From a virus, in the IMG/VR virus record IMGVR_UViG_3300030616_000016, positions 70,561 through 134,560 of that record: DNA of 64,000 nt; one strand, written 5' to 3'. The position numbers and the translations under genes were made by a program. Below the pieces are notes generated by a model. The model searched no databases, was not told where the DNA came from, and saw only the letters and a list, made by a program, of their open reading frames with translations. Shown here piece after piece: positions 62,731 to 62,781 of this stretch (position 1 is its first letter; the number at the start of each line of letters is the position of its first letter).

Positions 62731-62781
62731 TATCAAGGTGCATTCGTAAGACCCCTGGCTTTAGGCGTGGGGTAATGTCAC
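62731..62781 (+). mobile_element. Minimal (about 51-bp) IS605-family end remnant: LE start (TTATCAAGGTGCATTCGTAAGACCCCTGGCTTTA) fused directly to the RE terminus (GGCGTGGGGTAATGTCAC)
   Basis: Identical strings to the ends of the elements at 21866-23167 and 33634-33883. It supplies the last 6 codons and the stop of ORF 62761-63024. Confidence 0.55.

Follow-up and report, generated by a model that had tools for sequence, protein, structure and literature searches.

A probable 48-bp relic of a TnpB-carrying IS200/IS605-family element in the end of a phage gene

The locus and the TnpB-related elements around it

The stretch of DNA analyzed here, 64,000 nucleotides long and hereafter called the window, belongs to a metagenomic contig of 231.6 kb (sample ERZ27252234) that looks like a giant phage in its gene content and layout. 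Its large ORFs lie nearly all on one strand, and its genes include those for an RNA polymerase beta-like protein, helicases and a nicotinamide phosphoribosyltransferase, with DNA polymerase III alpha, RecA and RuvC encoded just beyond the window. Two genes near the start of the window, at 878-2026 (-) and 1983-3107 (-), overlap: one for a protein with a reverse-transcriptase domain (RVT_1; phrog_2825, phrog_1423) and a RecA-like gene, the latter at its end.

At 62730-62781 (+) lies the unit TTATCAAGGTGCATTCGTAAGACCCCTGGCTTTAGGCGTGGGGTAATGTCAC, which consists of TTAT and a 48-bp element (62734-62781, +) and extends into the end of a phage gene of 87 aa on the other strand (62761..63024, -). The region 61020-62240 (-) encodes a 406-aa protein that combines a DUF6745 domain at its C-terminus with a long five-residue-period repeat (SLRNSLHDNLYDKLY...); a paralogue is located just past the end of the window (L031 8755-9870), with approximately 80% DNA identity over about 475 nt.

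[quoted passage not shown] Copy 1 (21866-23164, -) is a full, TnpB-only element of 1299 bp without a transposase gene, with TTAT at 23165-23168. Its tnpB gene (21900-23066, -) encodes 388 aa with the Pfam domains HTH_OrfB_IS605, OrfB_IS605 and Cas12f1-like_TNB, matches the phrog_506 transposase and has homologues of 388 aa. Copy 2 (33637-33883, +; TTAT from 33633) is a protein-less element of 247 bp with both ends, and resembles the palindrome-associated transposable elements (PATEs). It keeps approximately 93 nt of LE, including a promoter-like TTGACA-17-TATACT, and approximately 125 nt of RE-proximal sequence. As this RE-proximal block differs from that of copy 1 by clustered, compensatory-looking changes, copy 2 did not arise from copy 1 by deletion.

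Regarding their surroundings, copy 2 ends 4 nt past the stop codon of an RNA-polymerase-beta-like ORF (33888-35558), and the last bases of the copy 1 RE, TAATGTCAC (21866-21872), provide the ATG that opens ORF 21459-21872, the true start of which may be an ATG nine codons further in (MYRN...). Copy 1 is oriented opposite to copies 2 and 3. Replication direction was considered as a cause of this inversion but is no obvious explanation for it, given that GC skew is negative throughout and shows no switch between the copies.

The TnpB proteins closest to that of copy 1 (79-87% identity) belong to elements with quite different end hairpins and a TTAC target (L029 3480-4990 and L030 1-1480). These relatives are thus uninformative on the element ends, and ends and cargo appear to have been exchanged between elements of the family. 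The first of these two sequences is phage-like, with SSB, Bro-N and HNH genes and an AcrIC5-like gene.

Two 5'-truncated TnpB remnants of other lineages were also detected, at 42080-42298 (+) and at about 56133-56312 (+). Their scores for Cas12f1-like_TNB exceed the Pfam cut-off in both cases; the two share 35-37% identity with the TnpB of copy 1 and are placed in gaps between minus-strand phage genes. The guide RNA of these systems is encoded at the 3' end of tnpB, and the two truncated loci might for that reason be orphan guide-RNA regions. Downstream of the 56-kb remnant, a perfect hairpin (CTCGGCAAT-TC-ATTGCCGAG) followed by AGCATTCAC looks like an intact right end. Directly downstream of the 42-kb remnant, positions 42347-42890 hold about 16 tandem units of 35 nt, each with two conserved boxes, TGATTCATTC and TGGTATTTC, separated by 8-9 variable nt. 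Three does not divide this period, and the repeats are free of ORFs running across them; they could represent iterons, an origin or a protein-binding array.

In all, the 64 kb contain an intact copy, a PATE and a solo hairpin as well as two tnpB genes that are truncated, and the PATE and the truncated genes form a decay series. An earlier interpretation made from the letters of the window, here called the sequence-only reading, had proposed repeated activity of the element within this phage lineage. That proposal was fair and even understated, considering the two additional TnpB remnants of other lineages, and a single giant-phage genome has been repeatedly invaded by TnpB elements.

A fusion of the two element ends within a phage gene

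The anatomy of the remnant could be resolved base by base. TTAT (62730..62733, +), the target and left cleavage site (TAM), stands directly 5' of all three copies with no target duplication. It is followed by the LE-specific part CAAGGTGCATTCGTAAGACCCCTGG (62734..62758, +), which matches the LE of both other copies at 100% and contains the 5' arm of the hairpin together with AAGA (62748-62751, +), assigned as the left guide by analogy with IS608 (PMC5934647). Next comes CTTTAG (62759..62764, +), a 6-nt microhomology common to the LE and RE loops, where the LE and RE matches overlap and which constitutes the crossover interval. The RE-specific part GCGTGGGGTAATGTCAC (62765..62781, +) likewise matches the RE of both other copies at 100%. 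It comprises the 3' arm of the RE hairpin and a tail of 9 nt, the last four of which, TCAC (62778-62781, +), are the right cleavage motif. The resulting hybrid hairpin, CCCCTGGCTTTAGGCGTGGGG (62752..62772, +), joins an LE-type 5' arm to an RE-type 3' arm. With TTAT counted, the unit is thus composed of 29 nt found in LE only, 6 common nt and 17 nt found in RE only.

Alignment with the full copy (blastn-short) matched LE positions 1-35 and RE positions 1281-1303 at 100%, that is 35 and 23 nt with the 6-nt overlap in CTTTAG, and both outer termini are exact. The fusion of LE and RE of one and the same element, as the sequence-only reading had it, was therefore borne out, and so was its placement between the subterminal hairpins, because the junction falls at equivalent positions of both, within their common loop. 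The alignment of the three copies that it had called for agrees, with LE and RE exact in all of them and the junction in CTTTAG. The coordinates needed a small correction: the 51-mer placed at 62731-62781 is present, and only once, but it starts one position earlier and occupies 62730-62780, or 62730-62781 with the final C. A match of less than about 30 nt on either side had been named as telling against the fusion; the RE side, at 17-23 nt, falls formally below that length, yet it is as long as had been described and far beyond chance.

The 5' part of the remnant recurs exactly at 23147-23168 (-) and 33633-33654 (+), and its 3' part at 21870-21887 (-) and 33862-33879 (+). The window contains the LE 22-mers and the RE 18-mer exactly three times each, against 0-0.06 times in shuffled sequences, so that both matches are far beyond a chance expectation of zero. 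The hairpin consensus has exactly five sites in the window (two, two and one over the three copies), and the fused form occurs a single time. Each copy has TTAT in front and ...GGGGTAATGTCAC at its end, and their flanks are unrelated. The remnant is accordingly a separately placed copy, which agrees with its description as a third independent footprint, and TTAT before all copies, the unrelated flanks and the lack of target duplication together make up an IS200/IS605 signature. Segmental duplication was rejected in view of the same unrelated flanks. A transposon circle junction was also rejected: it would read from the RE end into the LE start, while the unit reads LE and then RE, an order that indicates the product of an internal deletion.

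Since the source is a MEGAHIT-style metagenome contig (k141_...) bearing repeated IS ends, we considered that an assembler might have collapsed the repeated element and created the junction artificially. The overlap at the junction is just 6 nt, however, far under any k-mer overlap used by an assembler and too short to mislead one. Moreover, an independently assembled 5.9-kb contig from a second sample (ERZ27252208) carries the identical 52-mer; it is 99.86% identical to the window over 4.2 kb, with 6 SNPs nearby. Both observations argue that the junction is genuine, and the occurrence of the identical 52-mer in the second sample rules out an assembly artefact for practical purposes, its probability being negligible.

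The remnant contributes the end of the phage gene at 62761..63024 (-). On the minus strand, the element sequence GTG ACA TTA CCC CAC GCC TAA encodes the last six residues, VTLPHA, and the stop codon, which lies in the hairpin loop CTTTAG (TTA on the plus strand, TAA on the minus strand). The sequence-only reading had attributed LEVTLPHA and the stop to the element as its last six codons; VTLPHA and the stop are indeed element-derived, but LE is phage sequence. In silico removal of the 48 bp gave a predicted ending ...LDLEISG*, meaning that the net effect on the ORF is an exchange of three residues, ISG, for six. This C-terminal swap is the only visible effect of the remnant. The ORF itself is real, as four homologues with 50-67% identity were found that share an invariant EDYHNAGLTP motif; their C-termini are variable, and none of the four has a VTLPHA-like tail.

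A hairpin at the 3' end of a gene, identical in two samples, could in principle have been retained by the phage, either to terminate or stabilize the transcript or for a useful new tail, and roles of this kind have been ascribed to REP hairpins. Against this, no terminator-like site, meaning a G+C-rich hairpin with a T/U run behind it, was found on either strand between 62300 and 63200, and an intrinsic terminator was therefore discarded. A structured RNA was discarded as well, since the RNA fold of the 3' region of the gene is unremarkable and not significant (z = -0.96). Rfam returned chance-level hits only (gathering threshold over the whole window; E up to 10 for the remnant and the copy 1 RE). 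The variable C-termini of the homologues, none of them like VTLPHA, do not favor a useful tail either, and because the two samples are 99.86% identical overall, the conservation of the remnant between them says nothing on selection. Altogether, retention for a phage function is very unlikely.

Hairpins, guides and the probable history of the remnant

The LE hairpin CCCCTGGCTTTAGCCATGGGG and the RE hairpin CCCCCGCCTTTAGGCGTGGGG lie on the same strand as direct repeats and agree at 17 of their 21 positions. Their arms are CCCCTGGC-TTTA-GCCATGGGG for LE and CCCCCGCC-TTTA-GGCGTGGGG for RE, with a bulged T in the 3' arm of both, and the longest uninterrupted identity between them is CTTTAG, precisely where the crossover sits. 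The LE hairpin begins 18 nt from the left cleavage site and the RE hairpin lies 9 nt from the end, spacings similar to those of IS608, which are about 19 nt on the left and about 10 nt on the right. In IS608, an unpaired T of the stem and a T of the loop are the bases contacted by the TnpA transposase (PMC8266576). As to whether the hybrid hairpin still folds, a question raised by the sequence-only reading, the answer is mixed: its minimum-energy DNA fold reaches -5.6 kcal/mol, but the register is shifted, the stem contains an internal loop and the bulged T is absent. When the native register with the bulged T was forced, the hybrid gave +0.3 kcal/mol, compared with -6.9 for LE and -8.0 for RE.

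In IS608, each hairpin has a tetranucleotide immediately 5' of its foot that serves as the guide reading the cleavage site, with the pairs TTAC/AAAG on the left and TCAA/GAAT on the right (PMC5934647). When this rule is applied by analogy, copies 1 and 2 present the pairs TTAT/AAGA and TCAC/GAAG, parallel to those of IS608 and with the fourth position co-varying. Of the two guides, the remnant has kept the left one, AAGA, the match to TTAT; the right one, GAAG, the match to TCAC, is missing. IS608-type TnpA requires two hairpins, and each of its two cleavage sites, left and right, needs its own guide (PMC5934647). With the right guide gone and the native bulged-T stem disrupted, synapsis and cleavage of two ends by a TnpA dimer would not be expected. 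The 48-bp remnant, with a single distorted hairpin and one guide missing, is hence predicted, by analogy with IS608, to be immobile, capable of neither excision nor transposition, and it is almost certainly inert. A tblastn search with one IS200-type TnpA query, which covered the window and approximately 10 kb beyond each of its ends out of the 231.6-kb contig, detected no Y1 transposase, so mobilization of the copies would have come in trans.

Copies 1 and 2 fit the IS200/IS605 family, as exemplified by IS608 and ISDra2, in having subterminal imperfect hairpins with a bulged T at both ends on one strand, together with the hairpin spacing and the guide and cleavage-site rule of IS608. Copy 1 adds a TnpB with OrfB_IS605 and TNB domains, absent from the remnant, and all three copies share insertion 3' of the tetranucleotide TTAT, without duplication or inverted repeats. 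The remnant retains the TTAT insertion but departs from the family in having one hybrid hairpin instead of a hairpin at each end, no guide for the right-hand site, no gene, no ωRNA region and no TnpA nearby. PATEs are short, non-coding elements made of IS ends only (PMC7290912, PMC10055086). Copy 2, which has both palindromes, is of this kind; PATEs keep both hairpins and guides and are often multi-copy, whereas the 48-bp unit is fused, lacks the second palindrome and is single-copy. By analogy only, the remnant is the IS200/IS605 counterpart of a solo LTR, where the interior between directly repeated ends has been lost and one hybrid repeat is left at the original site, although the repeat here is a 21-nt imperfect hairpin and the elements belong to different classes.

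We consider it probable (roughly 80%) that the 48-bp sequence is the dead relic of a TnpB-carrying IS200/IS605-family IS, which inserted at TTAT and later lost its interior. In such a history, a full-length or PATE-type copy would have been inserted 3' of TTAT by normal single-strand "peel and paste" transposition, three codons before the stop of the phage gene and in the orientation opposite to phage transcription. The interior between the two directly repeated subterminal hairpins would then have been deleted through a crossover in the loop CTTTAG, presumably by template switching or slippage during replication or by microhomology-mediated repair, leaving one hybrid hairpin between intact left and right termini. 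Microhomology or template switching, rather than homologous recombination, is implied by the repeat being a 21-nt imperfect hairpin with only 6 nt of uninterrupted identity. Hairpin extrusion may have helped and, more speculatively, a TnpA dimer holding both hairpins. As no TnpA was detected in the window or about 10 kb beyond its ends, precise excision was probably, or at least may have been, unavailable locally. The deletion would also be favorable to a phage with a packaging limit and a promoter-bearing insert facing its transcription.

With the remnant removed, the predicted empty site reads TTAT joined directly to TTCTAAATC. The pre-insertion allele that the sequence-only reading had suggested looking for was not found: neither megablast of positions 61000-64000 against phage records, nor viral contigs, nor the protein look-up yielded a full-copy, PATE or empty-site allele at this locus. 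Viral contigs held no relatives of the 87-aa ORF, and the pre-insertion protein ending in ...LDLEISG is not in the protein collection by exact look-up. The homologues with 50-67% identity are too distant to stand in for the empty site, and L028, the single contig examined among them, has no IS hairpin. Since neither a pre-insertion nor a pre-deletion allele appeared in these three sources, deletion in situ is what we infer rather than observe.

The remnant is ordinary decay of a known kind of transposon and not a new system, with a neat and perhaps under-described architecture, and it leaves the known working of the IS200/IS605 family unchanged. It offers a clean, base-resolved case of the decay of a single-strand transposon with no transposase at hand for precise excision, in which recombination of the end hairpins at a 6-nt microhomology probably left a 48-bp scar. 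Such scars are easily misannotated as terminators or REP-like repeats, and they can silently rewrite gene ends, as here by the donation of six codons and a stop. In addition, the scar marks an old insertion site and could be used to date or trace lineages.

Single-hairpin units elsewhere

The LE 19-mer GTAAGACCCCTGGCTTTAG is conserved across very different organisms. At four unrelated loci, an RE-type tail (AGTGTCAAC and similar) comes directly after the LE guide and a single hairpin. Two of these loci lie in genomes, of a Syntrophorhabdaceae (L005) and an Anaerovoracaceae (L006), and the other two are metagenomic (L024/25 and L026). With that of the window, this makes five independent single-hairpin loci. 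Each of these units has a single hairpin with a guide-like motif 5' of it, and is bordered by cleavage motifs left and right. TTAT precedes the unit in three of the four, and no TnpB match was seen beside any of them in the sequence read, which for L006 covers only about 310 nt downstream. In these units both hairpin arms are LE-type, and the crossover point is not placeable without the parent elements. The fused units returned by a scan of JGI metagenomes included no further copy of the form present in the window, and viral contigs contained neither its exact hybrid junction nor the general pattern of fused units.

The occurrence of this architecture in unrelated genomes and metagenomes, together with the exact termini and proper TTAT target of the unit in the window, would also be expected if the 48-bp unit were a mobile mini-element, fused elsewhere and moved into TTAT by TnpA acting in trans, comparable to REP sequences and their RAYT. 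REPs are single imperfect palindromes of 20-50 nt, each after a conserved, guide-like 5' tetranucleotide, and the RAYT (TnpA-REP) is the closest relative of the IS200/IS605 TnpA; the REP-associated TnpA reportedly cuts on the 5' or the 3' side of one REP hairpin, using one 5' tetranucleotide (PMC8266576). The likeness is a resemblance only, as REPs, and likewise REPINs, are high-copy, RAYT-linked and preceded by GTAG, whereas the 48-bp unit is single-copy, has a conserved GTAAGA before its hairpin and has no RAYT or TnpA in the window or about 10 kb from each end. Furthermore, the unit has one hairpin and one guide where IS608-type TnpA needs two hairpins and separate guides (PMC5934647), and its native stem register is lost. 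Every instance is single-copy in the data scanned, and in the species-representative genomes of L005 and L006 the fused unit is the sole exact match to the LE 19-mer. Movement as a mini-element is accordingly unlikely, and the single-hairpin units fit better with recurrent decay into "solo hairpins". It is conceivable, though doubtful, that this kind of fusion is a recurrent end-state of IS200/IS605 decay across phyla, possibly still bound by Y1 transposases and serving as raw material for REP-like repeats.

Relatives that keep more of the element were also encountered. The Anaerolineae MAG DAOTUR01 (L003-L021) holds at least 15 copies with the same LE, mostly at contig ends. One of them could be read through (L012 5130-5447) and is a protein-less element of approximately 315 bp, of the PATE kind like copy 2, with an RE hairpin one base different from that of the window. 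In another (L019), a second LE-like hairpin follows the first after about 80 nt. Moreover, a GC-rich viral contig (IMGVR_UViG_3300014773_000029, L001 620-705) carries TTAT and an LE-type hairpin head-to-head with an inverted RE-type hairpin and tail, a BIME- or REPIN-like arrangement of approximately 70 nt in all.
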